A stretch of DNA of 39,158 bases from an uncultured bacterium (GCA_903930015.1 CAIYXB010000079.1:1-39158); one strand, 5' to 3'; shown: positions 5,169 through 31,152, counted from the stretch's first letter. The notes: a model not told the origin generated them from the letters alone. Numbers and translations are program-made.

Positions 5169-7679
5169 ATGGTTAAGGTTTATAAACATTTTAATAAGCC
5201 ATATGAGATTTTTCTGGGGCTAAGTATTACCAAGTTGATACAAATTATAATCGTAATGGGAATCACGTTATGGATTTTTATTAGTCTTGGACTTAGCCCC
5301 CAAAGTCCTCTTTCACTCATAATCCTCATACCACTATTATTGTGTTTTGCAGTAATCATAAAATCTCAAGACGATTATTATTTAAGACTACTAACACATC
5401 CTTTTCAAGATCACCTCTATCTAATAAATAGAAAAACAAAACATTATCCAAATTTAATCGATAAGATAAATATCAAGAAAATTAGTGATTCAATAATTTA
5501 TAAAAAAGACTATAGTCTTAGTCAAATAATGCGAATCAATCATGGAATAAGCATACAAAATTTATCCAATGATGAACTAAGGGAACTACTCAATACATGG
5601 TCAGGGTTTTTAAGCCAATACAATAAAATCTCAAATTTTGAGGATTACTTTAGCAAACTCTTTGATAAAGAGCTTTTAGAGTTTTTTATTCATATAGATA
5701 AAGAAAGTCTAGAACAAAAATACTATCTCATAATCCATCAAGAAGCTTTAAATGAAGATAAATCAAAACTAGAAAAAATCTTAGTTAAAATATTACAGAA
5801 ATTAAAATTAAGCCCGAGTAACTCTTACTATACTTACAAAAAAGAATTTAATTTATTACAAGAAAAGATAGCCTACTGTCAAAATTATTTTAATAGCTTA
5901 AAGCTAAGCACTCACTTACTTAATGATAATGAGATTAAAAACCTCATTAGTAAAGAGCTTGATATTTTCACAAGCAAAGCCAAAGTCAAAGATAAAGGCA
6001 ATCATCTTGAACTAAAACAAACAAAAAATTCTTCAACCGAATATATAAAAACCTATACACTAAAACTAGCACCAGATAGTGGTGAATTAGATTTTTGGCT
6101 TAAAGAATTAGTATTAAGGATACATACTGAAGCCTTTATCTCAATTAAGCTTGAATACAGAGACCCTGATCAAGATAGAAAAAAAGCCGAATCAAAAGCA
6201 AGTATACTCTCTGAACTAAAAAAAGCCAAAAGAGCTTCGACGCAAAGTGTCATCAAGGACAATAAAGCCCTTTCTGAAACCCTAATAAACAAGCCATATT
6301 CATATAATTTAAGTATTGGTATCACAATCAAAACAAATAGTATAGAAGAACTTAAAAACTTTGATCGCATAATCCAAAGACCAATTAAAAACTGCGAGTG
6401 GAGTCCAGAAGCTCGTAAACAAATCAATTCACTTATCTCTAACTTGCCTTCATCTAAGCAAAATAAAGTCAGCTATAAGCATTATGCTGATTTAGATTTT
6501 GCAACTGCAAATTTTTGTTTTTTTGCAAGTAACTTTCCTAAAGATTCAAAATACTATATAGGTAAATCATTAAGTGATAACAACCCAATAAATCTAAATG
6601 AAGCAAACACCAAATTACATAAGACAAGATCAATAAACTTTATTGGCGACTCAGGCTCTGGAAAATCACTACTAGCAAAATCAATGCTTATCAAAAGGCT
6701 TCAAGATCCAAAAAACAAATTTATCATCATCGACAATACCCAAGATGGTTGGACTGATTTTACAGAAGCGCTTGGTGGCGTGCTGATAAACTTAAACAAA
6801 GCTTGCCCAGTAAATAATGCTTACTTTAATCCATTTTATATTGAAGAAAAACTAGAAAATCAAGAACTAAATCAAAAAATACTTTCTTTAATGAATTTTT
6901 TTAATGCACTATGCGACCAAGAAAAATTAACACTAGAAGATAAAGATTTTCTAGGCAAAAGTTTAAGGACATTTTTATTAAAAAATATCAAAGCTAGCCT
7001 AAGTGATCTATATTTATTTTGGTCAAACTGGGAAAACCGAGAACTTGCCACTAAATGGCAGAGCTTGATTGCGACATATTGCCATGTAACAAATGGAGCA
7101 TATGCCTATCTACTTGATGGCAAAGCATACTCATACAATAATCAATTACAACTGTTTCAATTCAGCACCATAAATCAAGAAAGGAGTTTTTCTGATATTT
7201 GTTTTTATCTAATCAATAATGAAATCGAAAAAAAAGCACAAAGTCAGGAAAGCAAAATCACGCTGATTATTGATGAAGCTTGGCGTTTAATGCAATCTCA
7301 AAAAGCAAGAGATTTTCTATCATATTATGCAAGAGCAGGCAGAGCAATCGAATGCGCACTCTGGACTATAAGCCAAAAGCCCAGCGATTTGACTAAAGAT
7401 ATCTACTCTTCCGCAAGTGTCAATATAAGCTTTCATTTAAAAGAAAAATCCGACCAAGAAAAACTCAAAACACTTGTCGGCTTTGAAGAACATGAACTGA
7501 AATTATTTACAAACAATCTACTTAAAGCCAGAGGAAACTGTATTATAAAAAGTAGCTACGGCACCGATTTAGTAAAAGTAATGATAAATGATGATAAGAA
7601 GATCATTTGCTCATCAGAAAAAGACTTACTTAACGCAAGAAAAGAATTTCAAAAATTAGCTACTAGGATTTATCAATAA
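5169..7679 (+). CDS. virB4: VirB4/TrbE/TraC-family type IV secretion ATPase with an N-terminal VirB3-like two-helix membrane module
   Basis: Walker A FIGDSGSGKSLLAKS, Walker B TLIIDEAWRLM, downstream ARAGRA...WTISQKPSDL. N-terminal residues about 15-75 form two TM helices, as in VirB3-VirB4 fusions. Confidence 0.75.
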   Translation: MVKVYKHFNKPYEIFLGLSITKLIQIIIVMGITLWIFISLGLSPQSPLSLIILIPLLLCFAVIIKSQDDYYLRLLTHPFQDHLYLINRKTKHYPNLIDKINIKKISDSIIYKKDYSLSQIMRINHGISIQNLSNDELRELLNTWSGFLSQYNKISNFEDYFSKLFDKELLEFFIHIDKESLEQKYYLIIHQEALNEDKSKLEKILVKILQKLKLSPSNSYYTYKKEFNLLQEKIAYCQNYFNSLKLSTHLLNDNEIKNLISKELDIFTSKAKVKDKGNHLELKQTKNSSTEYIKTYTLKLAPDSGELDFWLKELVLRIHTEAFISIKLEYRDPDQDRKKAESKASILSELKKAKRASTQSVIKDNKALSETLINKPYSYNLSIGITIKTNSIEELKNFDRIIQRPIKNCEWSPEARKQINSLISNLPSSKQNKVSYKHYADLDFATANFCFFASNFPKDSKYYIGKSLSDNNPINLNEANTKLHKTRSINFIGDSGSGKSLLAKSMLIKRLQDPKNKFIIIDNTQDGWTDFTEALGGVLINLNKACPVNNAYFNPFYIEEKLENQELNQKILSLMNFFNALCDQEKLTLEDKDFLGKSLRTFLLKNIKASLSDLYLFWSNWENRELATKWQSLIATYCHVTNGAYAYLLDGKAYSYNNQLQLFQFSTINQERSFSDICFYLINNEIEKKAQSQESKITLIIDEAWRLMQSQKARDFLSYYARAGRAIECALWTISQKPSDLTKDIYSSASVNISFHLKEKSDQEKLKTLVGFEEHELKLFTNNLLKARGNCIIKSSYGTDLVKVMINDDKKIICSSEKDLLNARKEFQKLATRIYQ

Positions 7680-8203
7680 TGAGTGTTAAAATATGGCTAA
7701 ATCAGCCTGGTATAGTAAAAAAACTACAGCTTTTGGCTTTAATAAGCCTGAGCTTGAATATTTTTTTACTCCTAAATAGAATTCCTCAATCCTGCAAAAA
7801 TAAGCCCGCCCAAGAGCTGCCAGAGCCCAAGGAGGAGCAAAAAAAGCAAACCAGTAATCTAGAGATCAAAAATTTTCTCAAAGAGTATTTAAATTACTTT
7901 TTTGGTACTGGACTTGTAGCAAGAAGTTTTATAGAAAAATATTCAGATGAAGAACTTTTTAAAAATGAGCTTGCTGATCAGCTTGATCAAAGAACACTAA
8001 AAGAGTTATCTAGTAATTTTAACATCTCAGATTTTTACATTGAAACAAAAGCCCAGGACACATATCAAATCATACTTGTTGGTATAGAGAGTTTTAATAA
8101 TAATCAATACCAAGATAGAGAAATTACTATGATCTTAGAGTTAATCTACCAAGACGATAAGTTCATAGTCCAATCTATACCTAAGTTTGAGGTGAAAGCA
8201 TGA
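7679..8203 (+). CDS. bitopic membrane protein, positional VirB8/TcpC-like candidate
   Basis: One N-terminal TM helix followed by a domain of about 120 aa with alternating beta-like segments. The ATG overlaps the upstream TAA by 1 nt. Confidence 0.3.
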   Translation: MSVKIWLNQPGIVKKLQLLALISLSLNIFLLLNRIPQSCKNKPAQELPEPKEEQKKQTSNLEIKNFLKEYLNYFFGTGLVARSFIEKYSDEELFKNELADQLDQRTLKELSSNFNISDFYIETKAQDTYQIILVGIESFNNNQYQDREITMILELIYQDDKFIVQSIPKFEVKA

Positions 8204-22226: not shown

Positions 22227-22360
22227 AATAGACATCTTGCGAAACATCGTTTCGCAGTAGATGTCGCCCGAAAAAAGGTCGCAACGACGCCACTCTTCGG
22301 AAGTTGCGCTAAGGATAATTCCGACTTTCACAAAAGGTCTAATGAGTATCTAACTTAAGA
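22227..22360 (-). repeat. unit U copy B (reverse complement of 14987-15118)
   Basis: Hand alignment shows only a handful of differences over about 132 nt. Contains the gacatct...agatgtc and gcgaaac...gtttcgc nested hairpins. Confidence 0.65.
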
Positions 22361-22363
22361 AAA

Positions 22364-22580
22364 TGGTACCGGTATCTGGGTTTCGCCCGGACTGTGTGTG
22401 CCGCCCCGCTCGAAGATACATAGGAAAAATAGTATAGGCGTAGCTGCCGACTTTTAGGAGGCAGATGCGCCTATACTAATTCTTCTAGCTGTAGTTTGTG
22501 AGCTTGCGAGCAAACTACAAGTGAGTGTCTTCGAGCGGGGCGGCACACACAGTCCGGGCGAAACCCAGATACCGGTACCA
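22364..22580. repeat. 217-bp palindromic element: perfect 53-bp inverted arms enclosing two hairpins
   Basis: 22364-22416 is the exact reverse complement of 22528-22580 (checked base by base; 34/53 are G/C). Inner hairpins are 22430-22440/22468-22478 (11 bp) and 22490-22498/22511-22519 (9 bp). Confidence 0.75.
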
Positions 22581-22786
22581 CTCTGACAACCGAATACGCT
22601 TTGGCTTTAAGCCAGCCCTCGGCTTCGCTTCGCTCAGCCTCGGGCGTCTCGCGCTAACAAGTGAGACTACAGTGTTAAAGAGCTGCTTCTTTAAGTTTGA
22701 TTGTAATTTTTGTCTGAAATTTTACAGGGCTGCTGCAGCTGTCAGTCAGCAGAGCTGAAAAATTTCAGACAAAAAATCATAGGGAA
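22573..22786 (+). repeat. repeat X' (left inverted repeat of the island)
   Basis: 22573-22658 equals the reverse complement of 30986-31071 with 1 mismatch. Lower-identity homology with an indel of about 22 nt continues to about 22786. Contains an 11-bp perfect stem (22712-22722/22760-22770). Confidence 0.7.
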
Positions 22787-22831
22787 TGCAAGGAGGCGAA
22801 GCCGACGCGCTAGTCTTCATTGCGCAGCAAT

Positions 22832-22983
22832 TTGAGTGAGCCCGTAGGGCGAGCGAATATATTACTGCAATACGAGAAACCCTAAAGTGCCACTTTAGGG
22901 TTATACACAAGCCTTTATCTCAGCGTGCGGAGCGAGACCTAGGCTCGCGGACTCCTGAACAAGGGTGAATTTCTAGCTACGAC
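22832..22983 (+). repeat. repeat Y copy 1 ending in the Z motif (22964-22983)
   Basis: Direct repeat of 25321-25470, clearly alignable by eye over about 150 nt with numerous substitutions. Conserved hairpins ccctaaagt/actttaggg and gcgag/ctcgc. Confidence 0.6.
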
Positions 22984-23178
22984 CGTATTCCATCAGAATT
23001 ACCACTCATAGGTTGGAAGCGAGACAAACAAATAATTACAAGGTCTTTGATATTTTTTTTCTAAACAATTCAATGAAAGTTGATGTCTTTGCTTTTATGA
23101 AGTGAGACTGAAGGGCTCACGGAACCAATCTGAGACGCTAGACTCAGATTGCAAAAACCTATTCAATTTGTATATTAA

Positions 23179-23913
23179 TTAATGTATACGTCTCCAACGT
23201 TTAAAAGCCTTGACCTCAGTAGAATTTAAACCAAACCACTCACCATTTTTTCTTTTATCCACAAAACGCTTATGCCAGTATGCTTCTATGCCGCTTGGAT
23301 CGTCAGTTTTGATTACATGAACCAATTTAAGATCTTCAGGCATTTGAACTCTCAATTCCTTTCCTCGCTGAACAGAATCTTTACTTTTACCAATTTTGTA
23401 CTCGTTACGATTACCGTGTTTATAAAGATATACTTCTCCTACTTCCAAACTAGTATCAGTTCCATTTATATCTTGTTCACGGGAAGATGTTTTTATCACT
23501 GGCTCACAAAATTCTAAAATATCTTCATAACTATTTTTATCACTACAATATTCTATTATTTTTGATGCAAGATGTTGTTTTGAGCCATAACGATTTTCAT
23601 AAGTTGATTTGTAAGGAAATTTATCGTTACTACATGCTTCCAACCTAATCTCTGAGGCAGTGGGAAATTTATTTAATTTACGCATTAGTTCAATAAATTT
23701 CTCAATAAGAAATTTATCGCTATATGCTCCCTGCAAAGAATTGGGAGTAAATCCTGCTTCTGTAATCGCGTCTGAAAACTTAGCCCAATGTTTTTGCCAA
23801 TCATAGCGTTTAATACCAATTTCTTTTTCAAACTTTGCCATACCTAATGGCTTGCCACCATTTGACTCTGTGGTTCTTTTTATCTCAGCTAAAATCTCTT
23901 CTTTACCTATCAA
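23179..23913 (-). CDS. T5orf172 (GIY-YIG-like, MUG113-type) domain protein with two N-terminal homing-endonuclease-associated-like repeats
   Basis: C-terminus VYLYKHGNRNEYKIGKSKDSVQRGKEL...IEAYWHKRF...NGEWFGL. TTG start preceded by AAGGAGA, which overlaps the ImmA stop codon. Confidence 0.6.
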   Translation of the reverse strand: MIGKEEILAEIKRTTESNGGKPLGMAKFEKEIGIKRYDWQKHWAKFSDAITEAGFTPNSLQGAYSDKFLIEKFIELMRKLNKFPTASEIRLEACSNDKFPYKSTYENRYGSKQHLASKIIEYCSDKNSYEDILEFCEPVIKTSSREQDINGTDTSLEVGEVYLYKHGNRNEYKIGKSKDSVQRGKELRVQMPEDLKLVHVIKTDDPSGIEAYWHKRFVDKRKNGEWFGLNSTEVKAFKRWRRIH

Positions 23914-23924
23914 ATGGTTCTCCT

Positions 23925-24425
23925 TTAATTGCTTTTAAATATTTTGTGATTATACACATGCCACCAAGCTGCATCTTTACTAACATTGTAAAGTCTAGCT
24001 AAACTTTCAACATCTCCATCCAGCTTTTCATAATCTTGCTTAAATGAATCAATAGGCATAAGTAACTCAGCAGCAAACTGGTTTGCCTCTACTTCCTTTG
24101 GATCATCATTGCAAAAATCTAATTTTGTTTCAGAGTCTGCATGTCCTAGAATGACATGACCTAATTCATGCGCAACAGTAAATCTTTGTCTAACTATAGA
24201 TTTTTTGTTGTTATAACCAATAATGGCTCTACCATTTTCAAAAAAATGAAGACCGTCAATGCTTCCCAAATCCCTTGCGTGAATCTCTACATTCATAGTC
24301 TTACGTACTTGTTTGATAATTTCATTAAGAACTATAGGGGCAGATTTTAAGCCAGTCTGCTCCAGTAATTTTTTAGCAAACTGCTTTGCAATTTTAATTC
24401 TTGCTTTATTCTCTTCTTCAATCAT
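23925..24425 (-). CDS. ImmA/IrrE-family zinc metallopeptidase
   Basis: HELGHVILGH motif followed downstream by EVEANQFAAELLMP. ATGA overlap with the XRE gene. Confidence 0.85.
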   Translation of the reverse strand: MIEEENKARIKIAKQFAKKLLEQTGLKSAPIVLNEIIKQVRKTMNVEIHARDLGSIDGLHFFENGRAIIGYNNKKSIVRQRFTVAHELGHVILGHADSETKLDFCNDDPKEVEANQFAAELLMPIDSFKQDYEKLDGDVESLARLYNVSKDAAWWHVYNHKIFKSN

Positions 24426-24769
24426 TTATTCTGGCTTTTTACAAACTCAATGAAATCTAATATTTTGTCCCTATCTTTGGGTTTCAATTGTGAAAGTTCT
24501 TTATCTTTACGAAAAACTAATTTGAAATCTAAGTCTTCAAGATCTTCTGATTTGCCTAAAAAGAAATTAATATCCCTATGCAGCACCTCTGCAATAGTTT
24601 CTAAATCTTCCACTGAAACTTTTCTATTCCCAGACTCAATCAATGAAATTGCAGTACCAGATTCAAAGCCTAATAATTCTGCTAATCTTTTTTGTGATAT
24701 TTCTGCGGACTCTCTTGCTTCTTTAATTCTAGCCCCAATAAGTTTATACTTATTATCATCGCTTTTCAT
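24422..24769 (-). CDS. XRE/Cro-cI-family HTH repressor
   Basis: IGARIKEARESAEISQKRLAELLGFESGTAISLIESGNRKVSVEDLETIAEVL. Confidence 0.85.
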   Translation of the reverse strand: MKSDDNKYKLIGARIKEARESAEISQKRLAELLGFESGTAISLIESGNRKVSVEDLETIAEVLHRDINFFLGKSEDLEDLDFKLVFRKDKELSQLKPKDRDKILDFIEFVKSQNK

Positions 24770-24775
24770 ATTGAA

Positions 24776-24842
24776 ATTATAGACTTTTCAAAAAGTGTTG
24801 ACAAGTCCTTATCAAAATGATAAGCTAGGGTTATCAAAGTGA
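24776..24842. promoter_or_regulatory. back-to-back promoters with overlapping -35 boxes, plus palindromic operator sites
   Basis: Plus strand: TTGACA (24798-24803), 17 nt, TAAGCT (24821-24826). Minus strand: TTGTCA (24804-24799), 17 nt, TATAAT (24781-24776), ending 6 nt before the XRE ATG. Palindrome CTTATCAAAATGATAAG at 24808-24824 and half-site TTATCAAAGTGA at 24831-24842. Confidence 0.5.
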
Positions 24843-24885
24843 GGCACACGTGTGTTTCACAAGAAAACTAGAGGAAATTAGAATA

Positions 24886-25167
24886 ATGGCAAATTATGAA
24901 ATAAAATGTATTAACAAAATTGATAGAAATGATCCTACTGAAAGAATCCAACGTGTTGGTGGTTATAGCAACGGCTCGAATTGGAAAATTACTGTCGCAG
25001 AAGCTATTGGTTACATAGAAAGTAAGCAACATAGTTTTTATGTAACTAAAAATGGTAAAACCGTATGGGTCATTGTCGCTGTGAGTAGATATGGAAACAA
25101 ATATATTAAAACCGAAGCTGATGGTAACGAGCCAAATAACCTGCTCAGCTTGCCAGAGTGTGTATAA
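24886..25167 (+). CDS. DUF3892-like small protein
   Basis: Start placed at the ATG at 24886 (GAGGA upstream). C-terminal ...TEADGNEPNNLLSLPEC matches my memory of the DUF3892 signature. Confidence 0.55.
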   Translation: MANYEIKCINKIDRNDPTERIQRVGGYSNGSNWKITVAEAIGYIESKQHSFYVTKNGKTVWVIVAVSRYGNKYIKTEADGNEPNNLLSLPECV

Positions 25168-25172
25168 ATGGT

Positions 25173-25238
25173 ATGACAGTAAAATACTTCATCTATGCTC
25201 GCAAGTCTTCCGACTCAGAAGATAGACAAGTGCTTTCT
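25173..25238 (+). pseudogene. displaced 5' stub (first about 22 codons) of a paralogous large serine recombinase gene
   Basis: MTVKYFIYARKSSDSEDRQVLS compared with MQYFLYARKSSESEDRQMLS of the intact gene at 29457. Most nucleotides match by eye, including an identical 15-mer TCAGAAGATAGACAA (25215-25229 = 29493-29507). Homology stops at about 25238. Starts 5 nt after the DUF3892 stop. Confidence 0.7.
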
Positions 25239-25248
25239 GAACCTTGGA

Positions 25249-25311
25249 GTCGTAGCTATAAATTCACCCATTCTTCGGCTTTAACTAAAAAGGTGAATTT
25301 CTAGATACGAC
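25249..25311. repeat. inverted pair of Z motifs (20-nt arms, 2 mismatches, 23-nt loop containing CTTCGG)
   Basis: gtcgtagctataaattcacc (25249-25268) against ggtgaatttctagatacgac (25292-25311). Confidence 0.6.
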
Positions 25312-25320
25312 CCAATTGTC

Positions 25321-25470
25321 TTGAGTGAGTCAAAGGCGAACGAAAATATATTACCAAAATACAAGCAACTCTAAAGTACCACTTTATACTTATGCACAAG
25401 CCCTTAATTCAGCATGCGAAACGAGACCCAGGCTCGCAGAGCCATGAACAAGGGTGAATCTCTAGCTACA
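25321..25470 (+). repeat. repeat Y copy 2 ending in the Z motif (25453-25470)
   Basis: Direct repeat of 22832-22983. Ends 22 nt from the stop codon of the minus-strand TIGR04141-like gene. Confidence 0.6.
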
Positions 25471-25491
25471 CCCCCCTATCTTTTTTAAAGA

Positions 25492-27327
25492 CTATTCATC
25501 AAGATCACTCTTGCAAATTTGACATATCTTTAAGTCAAAATCATATTTTTTAACTTCTTGATTTAGCTGAAAAATAGAGAACTTTGCAATATTTGATTCA
25601 AAGGATTCAATATCTGTGATCGATCTTATCGTAGAAGCTTCATCTACAAAAGCTAAACAAAATTCAATTCTTTTTTTGCTCCTAAATAAATCAATGAAAT
25701 CAGATTCAGAATATCTTGATAGCCAATCACTAAATTTTCTAAAATATTCATCCTCACCTTTTGATACTCGAACAGCTTTTTCGTAAACTTTTTTTAAAAA
25801 CTCACCTTTCTTTGTTTTTATAAGATCTTCATGAAGTCTTCTTGCTGAGACTTGGATTTGGCTAGAAAGCTCACGAATAGAATTATTAAATCCTTTCTTC
25901 ACATGAATAATTTGTATAGAATCTTCATTCACCTTAATAAGATCACAGAGTTCAATATTCTCAACAATTAACCTATCAAGTACAATAAAATTTGCATTCC
26001 TATAGAACGAAATATTAAAATCTTTTTCTTTCTTATGCTTGAGAATGTTCCAAGGTACACCAATAACAGAATTATCAAGATGCGTATCTAGTAAAGTTCT
26101 TATCCCACTATTAAGGTTGTCAATAAAATTCCTTTTTACTATATACCAAAGTCCATCAATAAGAAAATAAGTTTGTTTCTTAAATTCAAACTCACCATGA
26201 ATATGACTAGTCAAAGAGCCTACAGTACAGACTTTACCGTCATAATCAAACGATGTAATATTAATGTTTTTAATGAGTCTTAAAAAACTTTCTTTATCGA
26301 TATCACTATATTGTGAAGATACTTTAAGCAACTTAAATATTTCTATCGGTCTAGTCAAAGATACTTCATCAATTATTGCTTCAAAACTTCTACCAATAGT
26401 TATTTTATACTCATTCGCACATAAATACTTTTCATAATCTTTATGACACAGATCAAATTCATTAAAAGGATCATTTGCATTTTCAATATTACAATATTTT
26501 TTGAATAGTTCTTCACCGATATGTTCATTAAGACTATCTCGTAGTTCCTTGCCACGCTTTCCATTTTTACTTAGAGATTTAATTTGACTTAAATCTATTG
26601 TCGACTTCATTCTTAAAATAGTGCTAAGTTTCTTTAAAATAAGTGTAATTTCATAAGGATCTAATATCTTTTTAAGGAGGAATGATGACTTCGCCTCACA
26701 AGTTAAGTTCTTTTTTATATCTTTCTCATTAAAACCTAACTGCTTTTGAAGAACACCTTGATCTAATTCTGCTCTAATCACTTTATAAACACTTCCAAAG
26801 TTATCTTCCTCTGTGATTCTTTGATCATCTCGAAAAAAACGTGTGTTAGCTATAATTTGTCCAGTTAAAATTCTTTCTTGTACTGATTTCACTGATTTAG
26901 AACTTGATGAAATTAACTTTTCAAGTATATTTAAGCCAAAATCATCAACAACAAAAGGTTGAATAATATGATGGCCATAACCTCCTGTAACCGCAAAAAT
27001 ATTTTTTCCATCAGAAAAGAAACAAACAAACGATGGAATATTATTTGTTTTTAAATTGTATTTCAAATCATCAGTCATCAAAGTTGATAAGAATTTATAC
27101 CAAGTTGCCTCTCTTGAAAATACACCACTGTAAATGTAAATATCAAAATTATTTAATTCTAATCCACTAACAGTCTTTCTCTCTTCAAATTTTTTCTTTT
27201 CACCCTTATTATAAAATTCAATAACTTTATTACAAATTTCCTTATGATCAACCAAACCTGTTTTCTGTGATATCAAATCAAGATTTAATAGATAGATGCC
27301 AGTCTGTATACCAGATTTACTTCCCAT
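25492..27327 (-). CDS. TIGR04141/DUF6119-like protein with a C-terminal PD-(D/E)xK-like motif (putative nuclease)
   Basis: C-terminal ...VLDRLIVENIELCDLIKVNEDSIQIIHVKKGFNNSIRELSSQIQVSARRL. Start preferred at the ATG at 27327 (GGGAG Shine-Dalgarno) over the TTG at 27360. Family call is from memory of family signatures and needs an HMM search. Confidence 0.5.
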   Translation of the reverse strand: MGSKSGIQTGIYLLNLDLISQKTGLVDHKEICNKVIEFYNKGEKKKFEERKTVSGLELNNFDIYIYSGVFSREATWYKFLSTLMTDDLKYNLKTNNIPSFVCFFSDGKNIFAVTGGYGHHIIQPFVVDDFGLNILEKLISSSSKSVKSVQERILTGQIIANTRFFRDDQRITEEDNFGSVYKVIRAELDQGVLQKQLGFNEKDIKKNLTCEAKSSFLLKKILDPYEITLILKKLSTILRMKSTIDLSQIKSLSKNGKRGKELRDSLNEHIGEELFKKYCNIENANDPFNEFDLCHKDYEKYLCANEYKITIGRSFEAIIDEVSLTRPIEIFKLLKVSSQYSDIDKESFLRLIKNINITSFDYDGKVCTVGSLTSHIHGEFEFKKQTYFLIDGLWYIVKRNFIDNLNSGIRTLLDTHLDNSVIGVPWNILKHKKEKDFNISFYRNANFIVLDRLIVENIELCDLIKVNEDSIQIIHVKKGFNNSIRELSSQIQVSARRLHEDLIKTKKGEFLKKVYEKAVRVSKGEDEYFRKFSDWLSRYSESDFIDLFRSKKRIEFCLAFVDEASTIRSITDIESFESNIAKFSIFQLNQEVKKYDFDLKICQICKSDLDE

Positions 27328-27462
27328 GAACTCCCTATCTAAACCATTGCTCCATTCCAAAGATAAATTAGTTTAATTTCAATATCATTAATTATTTTTT
27401 GATTAGCATTAAAGGCATAATCTAAATTTTCAAGTTCTATATTCATACACATCAGATCAAAA

Positions 27463-29343
27463 TTAAACTATTTTCTTTTTCTCAAGAAGCTTAGCTTTAA
27501 AATGAGCCTGAGACTCACGCTTTACTTCATCAAGAAAATTACTCTCTTCAATCTCTTTAAATTGTTCATTACTAATATTTTTTCGTTGTTTTGATTGTAT
27601 ACCCAATCCATCATTAATTCTCTTGCTTACAAAACGTTGTATCCAAGCAAAATCAGTAAAGCGAGGGTTCAGGACTCTGCTTTTAAACTTTAGATTCAAT
27701 TCTTTCAATATGTCCGTCACTATACTTTTTGCTTTTTCATTTAATAAATTTTTACTTGCTTGACGTTTATTTTTTGGCTTTGGCGTTTTTTTAACAAAGG
27801 AGTCTACTTTATAACCTTTATTACTCAACACTTCTAAAAATTTTAATTTCTGAGCGCTGTCCATATTTGCAAAATCAGATAGAGCTTCTTTAACTTTTTC
27901 ATCTTCAAGATCAATAAAATCTGAAGAAAAGTCAAGTAAATTCTCACCCGTTTCTCTTATTGCAGCAAGTTTTTCATCTTTTTGATTATTTGTATCGGTT
28001 TCTATATCAAAATTTACAAAGGAGTCCTCTAAGTTACCTTTACTATCATCCACAGAAATTTCAAGTTTACTAATAAAATCCTGATCTTCTTCATCAAATA
28101 ATTTAAATTCATCAAATCTTTCAATCTGATTCAAACCAAGATGTGAAACAACCCAACACTCATTAGTCTCAGCATGCTTTCGAATTACCCTACCAATAAA
28201 TTGAATATATGGATTAAGCGACCTGAATGGCTTAAAGATTGCAGCAACACCAAGAGGTTTGTGATCGAAACCTTCTCCCAACATACCAACATTTACGATT
28301 ACGTCAATTTTGTTTTTCTTTAACTTATCTAATACTTCACTGTTATCACTTTCAGTTTCTTTTGAATTAACAAGTCCTACTTTTAATCCCATTCTTTCAA
28401 AAGCGGGTTTAACGAATTCTCTTGCATGCCTTATAGTCATTGCAGCTGCAATAATCTGATGGTTTTGATTTGGGAACTTCGTTTTTAAGACATTAAGCTT
28501 TTCAACTGCTTTTTGAGCAATAGAAGCACAACAGTCTTCAGACATAGCAACACTACGTCTAAACCAAGCATCATCTTTAAGTTTCATAATGTCACTAAGA
28601 GAATATTCTTTCCCAGCTTCATCTAAAAATCTTAATTCAACTTGTTCTGGAGAAACATTACTCGTTCTAATATTTCTAATAATTCGATCTCTAATCGCAT
28701 CCTTAAAGTGATAAGTATAGATCTTTTCCCCATCAAGCTTTTTACCATCAGACCGAAAAGGAGTCGCAGTAAGTCCAATTATTTTTGCATTTGAAAAAAA
28801 ATCTATAATCGTCTTATAGGTATTTGCTTCTTGATGATGAGCTTCATCAATTATAACGAGATCAACATCATCGCTTCTGCTTGCAAAAAACTTTTCAATA
28901 TCATTGAGTTGATGATAATTTCCAATAATTATTTGATGTTCGTCAACATCCGAATTATTAACAGTCGAATCAAGAACCAATGTAAAAAGTTCTGATTCCG
29001 TCAATTCTTTATCTGATAAAAGCTCTAGTGCTTTATAAATATTTGCTCCAGGGTTCTCAGTTATGTCCAGATCATCATTTATTTGAGTTGCTAAAGCTTT
29101 ATTCGGTGTAATAATAAGAGTTTTTTTCTTACACAATCCAAAAGGCAGTATTGCAATTAGAGCCGACTTCCCTGTACCTGTAGGCATTTGAATCAGTGTT
29201 TGTCGATTATAATTTTTTTTAGAATAATGCTGAAGTGCTGAACTAAATGCTTCAGTTTGGCATTCTCTTAACTTCTTTCTAGAAATCTCTATTTCACTAA
29301 ATACATTACTCATCTGATTAATAATATCCAAATTACTAAACAT
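27463..29343 (-). CDS. SF2 DEAD/DEAH-box helicase (ResIII + Helicase_C type) with a C-terminal extension of about 200 aa
   Basis: Motif I MPTGTGKS, Ia IITPNKAL, II IIDEAHHQ, III GLTATPFR, VI QFIGRVIR. Confidence 0.8.
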   Translation of the reverse strand: MFSNLDIINQMSNVFSEIEISRKKLRECQTEAFSSALQHYSKKNYNRQTLIQMPTGTGKSALIAILPFGLCKKKTLIITPNKALATQINDDLDITENPGANIYKALELLSDKELTESELFTLVLDSTVNNSDVDEHQIIIGNYHQLNDIEKFFASRSDDVDLVIIDEAHHQEANTYKTIIDFFSNAKIIGLTATPFRSDGKKLDGEKIYTYHFKDAIRDRIIRNIRTSNVSPEQVELRFLDEAGKEYSLSDIMKLKDDAWFRRSVAMSEDCCASIAQKAVEKLNVLKTKFPNQNHQIIAAAMTIRHAREFVKPAFERMGLKVGLVNSKETESDNSEVLDKLKKNKIDVIVNVGMLGEGFDHKPLGVAAIFKPFRSLNPYIQFIGRVIRKHAETNECWVVSHLGLNQIERFDEFKLFDEEDQDFISKLEISVDDSKGNLEDSFVNFDIETDTNNQKDEKLAAIRETGENLLDFSSDFIDLEDEKVKEALSDFANMDSAQKLKFLEVLSNKGYKVDSFVKKTPKPKNKRQASKNLLNEKAKSIVTDILKELNLKFKSRVLNPRFTDFAWIQRFVSKRINDGLGIQSKQRKNISNEQFKEIEESNFLDEVKRESQAHFKAKLLEKKKIV

Positions 29344-29456
29344 TTGCTTGAATTTAGCTAATCCATATTAACAAAACTGTCCATTCAATAGCTTCTTTTT
29401 ATCTAACAATATTACTACCTGGCCAAACCACACAAAATCCTTTAAAATAAAGCTCT

Positions 29457-31010
29457 ATGCAATACTTCCTCTACGCCCGCAAATCTTCTGAATCAGAAGA
29501 TAGACAAATGCTATCCATTGAGGCTCAAATCCAGGAGTTAAAGGACTTTGCGAAGAAAAACAACTTAGAGATAGTCAAAACCTTCACTGAATCCATGTCA
29601 GCCAAGGCACCTGGGAGGACTGTCTTTAATCAAATGCTGACCGAGCTTGAATGTGGTACGGCTGATGGCATACTGGCTTGGCATCCTGACCGTCTTGCAC
29701 GAAACATGTTTGACGGTGGAAAACTTCTGCACCTTATCGACAAGAATATAATTACTGATCTTAAATTTCCTAGTTTTTATTTCGACAAATCGGCTAATGG
29801 AATTTTTAATCTCTCTATTGCTTTTTCTCAGGCTCAATACTTTGTTCAAGGACTCAGAGAGAATGTCCTAAGAGGAATTAGACAGAAACTAAGACGCGGG
29901 GAATATCCAGGCAAGGCTCCTTACGGCTATATCAATAACCTAAAAACTAAAACAATAGAACCAGATCCTGAATATTTTCACATAATCCAAAAACTACTTA
30001 ATAAATTCTCTGAAGGCAATATGACTCAAGCAATGTTCAGAAAAGAATTATTTAATCATGGTTTACAAACCAAGAACGGTAACCAATTAAACTATGCTTC
30101 ACTATTTCATATTCTCACGAATCCATTCTACTATGGGGTCTTTAGGCTAAATGGCGAGCTTCATCAAGGCTCACATCAGCCAATGATCTCTAAAGAAACT
30201 TATGACAAGATTCAAGAAGTTCTTAAAAGCAAAACTAGAAAAGTAAATCACTCAGAAGAAAAGAAAAAAGAAAAAAACTATCTCTTCCAGGGTCTTGCTC
30301 GCTGTGGTAATTGTGGCTATGGAATCGTTCCAGAATGGCACAAGAAGAAATCTGGTTTGGTTTTTAAGTATTATCGTTGTAGCCGTAAGTCTAGAGTCTG
30401 CACTTGTGATGAAAAACCAGTAAACGAGAATCATCTTGCACAGCAAGTAGAAGAATTTATCAGCCACATAGCTATGCCTAATGATTGCTATAAAAAACTT
30501 CAAGAAAGAACCAAGCAATGGGCGGACGAAGATACTAAAAACTCTAAAGTGGCACTTCAGGGTTTATCTACAGAACTAACAAGTATCCAAAATAAGCTTA
30601 ATCAGCTTCTTGATCTTCAACTAGACGGTGAGATCTCCGTAGCTGAATACAAAAACAAAAAAAACACTTTAATCGAGAAAAAGGCCAATTTAGAAGATCA
30701 AAAAGCCAAAGTTTTAGCTAAAGGCTCAATTTGGGTTGAACCACTAGAAGATTGGATGAAAACCTGTAACCAAGCCGCTCAAAGCCTAAAGAGTCAAAAC
30801 TTTCAAGAGATGAATCGTATTCTTCAAAAAATCGGGTTGAACCACAGAATCTCGAAGAAAAAACTAGATATACAGTTTGTTAAACCCTATGATTTTTTGT
30901 TTGAAATCCAGCCACTGACTGACAGCTGCAGCAGCCCTGTAAAATTTACAGACATAACTAATCATCAAACGCAAAGAAGCAGCGCGTTAGCGCGAGACGC
31001 CCGAGGCTGA
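29457..31010 (+). CDS. large serine recombinase (resolvase domain + recombinase domain + zinc ribbon + coiled coil)
   Basis: YARKSSESEDRQ catalytic-serine region. LAWHPDRLARN. CGNCGYGIV...YYRCSRK zinc ribbon. Coiled-coil LNQLLDLQLDGEISVAEYKNKK. The last 42 or so codons lie inside repeat X. Confidence 0.85.
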   Translation: MQYFLYARKSSESEDRQMLSIEAQIQELKDFAKKNNLEIVKTFTESMSAKAPGRTVFNQMLTELECGTADGILAWHPDRLARNMFDGGKLLHLIDKNIITDLKFPSFYFDKSANGIFNLSIAFSQAQYFVQGLRENVLRGIRQKLRRGEYPGKAPYGYINNLKTKTIEPDPEYFHIIQKLLNKFSEGNMTQAMFRKELFNHGLQTKNGNQLNYASLFHILTNPFYYGVFRLNGELHQGSHQPMISKETYDKIQEVLKSKTRKVNHSEEKKKEKNYLFQGLARCGNCGYGIVPEWHKKKSGLVFKYYRCSRKSRVCTCDEKPVNENHLAQQVEEFISHIAMPNDCYKKLQERTKQWADEDTKNSKVALQGLSTELTSIQNKLNQLLDLQLDGEISVAEYKNKKNTLIEKKANLEDQKAKVLAKGSIWVEPLEDWMKTCNQAAQSLKSQNFQEMNRILQKIGLNHRISKKKLDIQFVKPYDFLFEIQPLTDSCSSPVKFTDITNHQTQRSSALARDARG

Positions 31011-31071
31011 TCGAAGCGAAGCCGAGGGCTGGCTTAAAGCCAAAGCGTATTCGGTTGTCAGAGTGGTACCG
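30885..31071 (-). repeat. repeat X (right inverted repeat of the island)
   Basis: Reverse complement of X' (22573-22786). Overlaps the recombinase 3' end and the last 8 nt of the tRNA. Confidence 0.7.
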
Positions 31072-31152
31072 ATGGCCGGACTTGAACCGGCACAGGAATT
31101 AATTCCCGACAGATTTTAAGTCTGTTGCGTCTACCGATTCCGCCACATCGGC
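31064..31152 (-). tRNA. trnL: tRNA-Leu(UAA), class II, CCA-encoded, no intron
   Basis: Folded by hand. Acceptor GCCGATG/CATCGGT (G1-U72 wobble). D-arm GCGGAATCGGTAGACGC. Anticodon stem ACAGA/TCTGT with loop CTTAAAA. Long variable arm GGAATTAATTCC. T-arm GCCGGTTCAAGTCCGGC. Discriminator A followed by CCA. Confidence 0.9.

Follow-up and report, generated by a model that had tools for sequence, protein, structure and literature searches.

A 39,158-nucleotide (nt) stretch of DNA from an uncultured bacterium (GCA_903930015.1 CAIYXB010000079.1:1-39158), which we call the window, carries the first 22 codons of a large serine recombinase gene (25173–25238, + strand), separated by a 4.2-kb block from an intact recombinase gene of the same family (29457–31010, + strand). 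The 22-codon stub is, in our assessment, probably the relic of a different, P0018-like recombinase gene and a product of ordinary mobile-element decay. Two elements of one family are likely to have recombined or stacked here, after which a deletion removed the second recombinase. The intact recombinase is a different family member and was never interrupted. The original prediction had proposed instead that a cassette without a recombinase gene, but equipped with a copy of the first twenty or so codons, integrated inside the recombinase open reading frame (ORF) and restored the gene.

The stub lies where it had first been described. Its ATG at 25173 follows the end of a DUF3892 ORF (25167) after a gap of 5 nt, and the ORF that opens there encodes MTVKYFIYARKSSDSEDRQVLS, after which 26 unrelated codons lead to a stop at 25302–25304. 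Against the 5′ end of the intact gene, 47 of 55 nt agree (25183–25237 versus 29461–29515; 85%, blastn E = 4e-11 within the window), and an identical 15-mer, TCAGAAGATAGACAA, stands at 25215–29 and 29493–507. This match is far above chance. Likeness ends at 25238, both to the resident gene, as had been claimed, and to an orthologous island (L090). The break falls inside a conserved stretch, LS|IE; no homology continues past it, and blastx returned no recombinase match beyond codon 22. With 22 of about 145 catalytic-domain codons left, the stub is no functional recombinase.

How much weight can the 55-nt match bear? The first ~20 codons are nearly invariant throughout the family (M-K/Q-Y-F-I/L-Y-x-R-K-S-S/T-x-x-E-D/E-R-Q-x-L-S) and constitute its most conserved DNA, so a match of this kind is expected between any two family genes. 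The stub resembles the resident gene because of this shared gene start, and their similarity is therefore no proof that one was copied from the other. At the peptide level, the stub agrees with P0018 and with the L090 recombinase at 19 of 19 amino acids (aa) and with the resident recombinase at 15 of 19.

A search with DUF3892 led to two islands, L090 (GCA_964517685.1) and L091, in which T5orf172, ImmA and XRE genes lie divergent from DUF3892 and a recombinase gene follows DUF3892 directly. The ancestral XRE-ImmA-T5orf172/DUF3892-recombinase module that had been postulated is thus found as contiguous DNA. In both islands the recombinase gene continues past codon 22: in L090 the ORF spans 553 aa up to the edge of the contig, and L091 stops 125 nt into the gene. 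Positions 422–2481 of L090 align with 23179–25238 of the window at 75% nt identity, and the alignment ends exactly at the end of the stub. The corresponding proteins are 69% (T5orf172), 75% (ImmA), 79% (XRE) and 82% (DUF3892) identical. The L090 recombinase, in contrast, is only 49% identical to the resident recombinase, an ordinary family-level distance. Set against the 69–82% of its four neighbours, this value indicates that the intact gene is not the old gene, and the expectation that the gene downstream of the cassette would be the orthologue of the one at the empty site failed.

The resident gene also belongs to one lineage along its whole length. Its closest relative is P0002, which it matches at 19 of 20 aa over codons 1–20 and at 17 of 20 over codons 21–40; the corresponding counts against P0018 are 16 of 20 and 11 of 20. 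Because its P0002-like character holds to either side of the supposed crossover, the gene contains no chimeric joint and was never interrupted, and the claim that a cassette brought in the first ~20 codons and restored the gene falls with it. The protein itself is a large serine recombinase, with Resolvase (PF00239), Recombinase (PF07508) and Zn_ribbon_recom (PF13408) domains all above cut-offs, and it retains every invariant column of a 24-sequence family alignment. An exact look-up found it not on record, and a scan of genome contigs with the recombinase gave one distant match only.

The ends of the island fit the resident recombinase. On the right, tRNA-Leu(taa) (31064–31152, − strand) contributes its last 8 nt (31064–31071; TGGTACCG on the + strand) as the core of attR, which reads ...GGTTGTCAGAG-core-ATGGCCGG into the tRNA from 31064. 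On the left, attL (22364–22419, + strand) comprises the same core (22364–22371) and an element-borne pseudo-tRNA arm, H, and reads CTTAAGAAAA-core-GTATCTGGG... from 22364. Four contigs of a related genome (L112–L115), all in one arrangement, carry tRNA-Leu without an element, and this empty attB reads CTCAAGAAAA-core-ATGGCCGG. Homology between L112 and the window begins exactly at 31064, and the flank before the attL core, CTTAAGAAAA, resembles the empty-site flank in L112. The core at both 22364 and 31064, together with the empty attB, identifies an integrative element at a tRNA 3′ end.

Inward of attL lies an inverted attP-like site, S_L (22525–22784, − strand), composed of the reverse complement of H (22525–22572), a core (22573–22580) and a left terminal inverted repeat, TIR-L (22581–22784). 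TIR-L is an inverted copy of the recombinase gene 3′ end and the intergenic stretch beyond it; its right-hand counterpart, TIR-R (the P arm; 30885–31063, + strand), spans the last 42 recombinase codons and 53 nt. The left inverted repeat at 22573–22658 matches the 3′ end of the resident recombinase at 30986–31071 in 85 of 86 positions, and H plus core agree between attL and S_L in 51 of 51. In the window, the attP-like sequence occurs only as this inverted internal copy. Since the attL/attR core is the 3′ end of tRNA-Leu and the inverted repeats match the resident gene, the ends belong to the element of the resident recombinase, which we term E2. The polarity that had been assumed is hence reversed: the outer ends fit the resident recombinase, and the block from T5orf172 to the stub is the inner fragment.

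The interval between stub and intact gene contains what had been listed for it: a hairpin (Z), a repeat (Y2), a DUF6119 gene, a helicase gene and an upstream region of 113 nt between helicase gene and recombinase. The further claim, that this is a self-contained cassette, does not hold at its left edge. In the left end of the window and in L004, a repeat Y directly follows TIR-L and a 47-nt linker (nhmmer E = 5e-22). The window's first copy, Y1 (22832–22989), after the linker at 22785–22831, is part of this left-end module; it holds two hairpins and the motif AAGGGTGAATTTCTAGCTACGACC at its end, and, as read from the alignment, the differences in these hairpins between the window and L004 appear to be compensatory. 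Y2 (25321–25478) is a copy of the same module truncated on the left, without linker or TIR-L. It starts only at TTGAGTGAG (25321), is placed 14 nt downstream of the DUF6119 stop, and is 79.5% identical to Y1 (25321–25469(–78) versus 22832–22980). As Y2 is a truncated left-end module, Y2, DUF6119, helicase and recombinase together are arranged like an ordinary element of the family.

Hairpin Z (25244–25315) consists of the Y-end motif in two copies, one inverted and one direct, and would sit at the deletion or recombination joint. The DNA fold of this region (25230–25490) has a free energy of −29.5 kcal/mol (z = −3.0). The sequence past the stub is unique and no shared repeat. We found the Y-end motif only in the window and in L089, a separate 714-bp contig (ENA sample ERZ27313500) that spans DUF3892, the stub, Z, Y2 and the 3′ end of DUF6119 and repeats the DUF3892-stub-Z-Y2 junction at 100% identity. 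Rfam gave no match for Y, Z or the hairpin region. We had also considered stub, Z and Y2 as one internally deleted recombinase pseudogene, a candidate dropped when blastx recovered nothing past codon 22. With the resident gene, Y shares only a 41-nt hairpin motif (30531–30572), which matches equally well in both orientations. This motif, CTAAAGTGSCACTTYAGGG, stands in the window at 30531–30572, 22869–22910 and 25353–25384 and in L005 at 1348–1382; it thus occurs both in repeat Y and in the recombinase coding region, there at the subfamily-conserved SKVALQG.

With two end modules, Y1 and Y2, and a P0018-like stub set against a P0002-like resident gene, the island is composite, and its parts suggest the following history. 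The stretch 22364–31071 would be a single integrative element, E2, inserted at the 3′ end of tRNA-Leu(taa) with its own recombinase (29457–31010). Its cargo slot, from the left inverted repeat to the recombinase, would hold two cargo blocks: E2's own, with Y2, DUF6119 and the helicase, and a fragment of a second element, E1, with Y1, T5orf172, ImmA, XRE, DUF3892 and codons 1–22 of the E1 recombinase. An E1 circle may have recombined with the resident E2 in the non-coding left-end modules (linker/Y) that the two shared; a less likely route would stack the two elements by site-specific integration. The product would have had the order cargo 1, E1 recombinase, junction, Y2, cargo 2, resident recombinase, and by either route the blocks would have ended up separated by a long palindrome (TIR-R, core, H, spacer, reverse complement of H, core, TIR-L). 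Long palindromes are unstable in bacteria, and for this reason we infer that a single deletion took away both the palindrome and all of the E1 recombinase from codon 23 on. The stub, the small hairpin Z and the truncated Y2 would be what this deletion left.

Several observations weigh against this history. The nucleotides of the stub barely separate the lineages, with 48 of 54 positions shared with L092, 47 of 54 with L090 and 45 of 54 with the resident gene. The resident recombinase shares no more than 62% identity with its closest relative, and no relative carries E2 alone (TIR-L, Y, DUF6119, helicase and recombinase), so that the original state of E2 is a reconstruction. The order of events, the crossover points and the derivation of Z are reconstructed likewise. 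The match between the inverted repeats could also stem from gene conversion. Finally, two features found in relatives point to the recombinase gene start itself. Between L090 and L092, the right boundary of the cargo slot lies exactly at codon 2, and a further locus, L012, has an inverted 5′ stub beside a cargo block. In L012, the recombinase upstream region (92% identical) and the first ~36 codons (75%) are present as an inverted duplicate (5410–5810 versus 9710–10096) that borders a 3.5-kb cargo block; it is the only other 5′ stub found. Given the codon-2 boundary and the L012 stub, recombination in recombinase 5′ ends may play some part.

Classical tandem accretion is an unlikely source of the arrangement. 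Here E1 would have arrived first at tRNA-Leu by means of its own recombinase and E2 second, on the tRNA-proximal side, displacing E1 outward, with one deletion removing the E1 recombinase body together with the left end of E2. The intact recombinase is indeed the tRNA-proximal one, L003 has an older recombinase-less remnant outside the attL of a younger element, and the process has been described in a preprint on tycheposons (bioRxiv 10.1101/2020.12.28.424599). A partial TIR-L copy in L003 (5875–6006 versus 7727–7858, 94% identical) flanks an acetyltransferase-RelE-MqsA block. In the window, however, it is the far-left TIR-L, H arm and core that pair with the resident TIR-R (85/86) and tRNA-Leu, whereas the E1-type relatives L090 and L092 carry tRNA-Trp-type arms and L092 is located at tRNA-Trp. 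After a first integration, moreover, the tRNA-proximal site is an attR, which serine integrases of the phiC31/Bxb1 type do not normally use as attB.

Insertion of a gene-restoring cassette, as originally proposed, is very unlikely. Direct 55-nt repeats do flank the 4.2-kb block, the contiguous DUF3892-recombinase arrangement that the model predicted is present in L090 and L091, and the resident gene pairs through its 3′ end with the outer inverted repeats, as if it were the gene body of the outer island. Yet the resident gene stands at 49% identity to the recombinase of the orthologous island, with the neighbouring genes at 69–82%; its 5′ end and body form one P0002-like lineage and the stub belongs to another, a lineage match that insertion would leave to coincidence. 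The supposed cassette has a truncated family left-end module for a left edge. Nor does it recur at serine recombinase 5′ ends, as had been expected: no second example, and no same-strand stub with cassette, was present among 80 metagenome loci and the context loci, and DUF6119 homologues do not lie beside recombinases.

A related idea, that Campbell-type homologous recombination within the first ~60 nt of the recombinase gene routinely shuffles cargo and leaves stubs as its footprints, has at best a very slight chance of being correct. It would make sense of the first 20 codons being the most conserved DNA of the family, of L090–L092 homology starting exactly at codon 2, and of the inverted upstream region and first ~36 codons beside 3.5 kb of cargo in L012. 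A single crossover at the 5′ end, though, predicts either two recombinase bodies or the order cargo 2-cargo 1, and neither is seen; 5′ stubs are rare (two of ~65 loci), and the break of the window's stub falls inside the conserved LS|IE with no homology beyond. A metagenome-assembly artefact that joined two related elements at the stub is a negligible prospect: the repetitiveness of the family and frequent contig breaks at its inverted repeats would favour one, but the separate contig L089 spans the junction at 100% identity, and Z beyond the stub is unique.

Our reading, in which a P0018-like gene was lost from a composite island, draws on a family that is large and mostly metagenomic (at least 574 metagenome matches to the recombinase). 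Its elements share a layout of variable leftward cargo, a rightward recombinase and an opposite-strand tRNA gene, with the 3′ ends of the last two adjoining or overlapping each other; targets seen are tRNAs for Ala, Val, Ser, Leu, Lys, Gln, Ile, Arg, Asp and Trp. Most family ORFs (~560–573 aa; L002, L003, L092 and many of the P00xx sequences) read through the core, antisense into the tRNA gene, with C-termini such as ...EWYRWSGSNRH, and the window gene (517 aa) stops 53 nt earlier. Cargo includes restriction-modification systems, toxin-antitoxin pairs and helicase modules. It is also exchangeable, since from codon 2 the recombinases of L090 and L092 agree at 99%, and their left ends at 88%, while their cargo is unrelated: the 2.1-kb XRE-ImmA-T5orf172-DUF3892 set in L090, and 9.1 kb in L092 that includes Trypsin_2 and CheR-like genes.

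The inverted attP-like site of the window is a family trait. An inverted copy of the recombinase 3′ end precedes the gene in 62 of the 65 loci with enough upstream sequence, over 70–170 nt and often at 100% identity. Just outside it lie the core and the conserved pseudo-tRNA arm H, which together make an intact but inverted attP-like site. In about 18 loci a second H plus core follows in the opposite orientation, 0.1–8.4 kb further left, mostly 100% identical and extending to 90–210 nt, with cargo such as restriction-modification systems between the two copies. Inverted repeats thereby enclose the cargo on the one hand and the recombinase on the other, and the two pairs meet at one site. Besides the window (22364–22784 and 30885–31071), the architecture was seen in L003, L008, L017, L019, L026, L034, L092 and ~55 others. 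Since TIR-L is present in 62 of 65 loci, we rejected the notion of an accidental leftover from an inverted insertion. None of 62 loci had the tRNA on its left side, the flipped order that would have pointed to inversion.

Standard serine-integrase logic does not explain the retained inverted attP-like site. It is conceivable, if rather unlikely, that the stub is a by-product of an undescribed cargo-shuffling system, in which elements keep the inverted attP-like site and the conserved left-end modules, and perhaps the invariant recombinase 5′ end, serve as handles for the exchange or accretion of cargo between elements.

Parts of this picture have counterparts in known systems. In composites of the staphylococcal cassette chromosome (SCC) carrying mec, elements with CcrAB or CcrC large serine recombinases stack at one site; pseudo-SCC units have lost the recombinase and kept their cargo, and direct-repeat att sites in rlmH stand between the SCC units. 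One unit of the window has likewise lost its recombinase and kept its cargo. Unlike in SCC, the target is a tRNA gene, and the lost recombinase left a 22-codon stub and no att site. As with phiC31 and Bxb1, a full set of sites shares an 8-bp core (attB in L112, attL, attR and the attP-like site). Here, however, the attP-like site is intact and inverted inside the integrated element, and its arms are 50–200 nt long and up to 100% identical to the attL/attR arms.

The closest parallels are tycheposons of Prochlorococcus, small cargo elements at tRNA 3′ ends that show repeated integration at one site, fragmented integrases and orphaned cargo, and a minority of which use large serine recombinases (bioRxiv 10.1101/2020.12.28.424599). 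The window resembles them as a cargo-carrying element at a tRNA 3′ end with a fragmented integrase. It differs in that the foreign fragment lies inside the ends of the resident element and not beside it, in that no partial tRNA stands between the two blocks, and in the extra inverted attP-like site of its recombinase family.

Cargo 1, the E1-type block, has genes on both strands. On the − strand it encodes a T5orf172/MUG113-domain protein (23179–23913), an ImmA/IrrE-type M78 peptidase (23925–24425) and an XRE-family helix-turn-helix (HTH) repressor (24422–24769); on the + strand, DUF3892 (24886–25167) is 82% identical to its L090 orthologue. Between the two transcription directions, at 24776–24884, lie divergent promoter-like sites, which score higher (11/12 and 10/12) than any other matches in the island. 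The XRE HTH (PF01381) beside the M78 peptidase (PF06114) and these divergent sites together form a predicted ImmR/ImmA module. In the ImmR/ImmA switches of ICEBs1 and of phages, an XRE repressor and an M78 anti-repressor protease are divergent from the recombination module. Judged from gene order, the L090 switch would similarly face DUF3892 and a recombinase, whereas that of the window now faces only DUF3892 and a dead stub. In L090, DUF3892 (2121–2405) is co-oriented with the recombinase, lies 10 nt upstream of it and sits under the XRE/ImmA-facing promoter. Speculatively, DUF3892 might serve the recombinase as an accessory protein or as a directionality factor.

Cargo 2 consists of two − strand genes, for a DUF6119/TIGR04141 protein (25492–27360) and a ResIII/DEAD superfamily-2 helicase (27463–29343). 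In PADLOC the pair matches no described system: DUF6119 has no meaningful model, and the helicase yields generic helicase-core matches only (PbeA, type IV restriction endonuclease). Homologues of DUF3892, DUF6119 and the helicase were absent from the 80 metagenome loci and context loci, and none of DUF6119 or the helicase occurred in 88 family loci. DUF6119 homologues are at most 37% identical and lie in unrelated contexts, and in the four contexts inspected (L085–L088) neither a helicase nor a serine recombinase adjoins them. The helicase has no exact match on record; viral contigs hold no relative of it and only distant recombinases.

The left end has further structure. A spacer of 105 nt with two internal hairpins, the subfamily's 'slot A' (22420–22524), separates the H arm of attL from the inverted H arm, and around it the two arms build a near-perfect hairpin of 217 nt (22364–22580; 56-nt arms 98% complementary, −103.7 kcal/mol, z = −19 in a DNA fold). 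A hairpin of this kind also exists in L003, L011 and L092. The linker, AATGCAAGGAGGCGAAGCCGACGCGCTAGTCTTCATTGCGCAGCAATT, is identical to L004 (around 6726) in 45 of 47 positions; the flanking DNA of the two is 60–66% identical and their recombinases only 50%. Past Y1, a second conserved hairpin module (23085–23147) is 83% identical to L092 989–1052.

Outside the island, the left flank is not syntenic with L112. A structured sequence of 134 nt occurs twice in the window, inverted and 95% identical (14987–15118 and 22227–22360); one copy ends at CTTAAG, with 3 nt (22361–22363) left to the attL core. Rfam returned nothing for this sequence, which could represent a small repeat element or a small RNA. 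A VirB4-like conjugation ATPase upstream (5169–7679; a weak match to the model for integrative and conjugative elements) and an IS1634-family transposase at the right edge (37542–39134) indicate other mobile DNA nearby.

A conserved gene start can therefore mimic a targeted duplication. The proposed new class of elements that target and repair recombinase genes is not supported and can be removed, its only example being an ordinary relic in a composite island. Islands of this family swap cargo between nearly identical recombinase backbones. Should a real mechanism underlie the inverted attP-like architecture, for example inversion or mobility independent of a recombination directionality factor, it would be of interest for the study and engineering of serine integrases.

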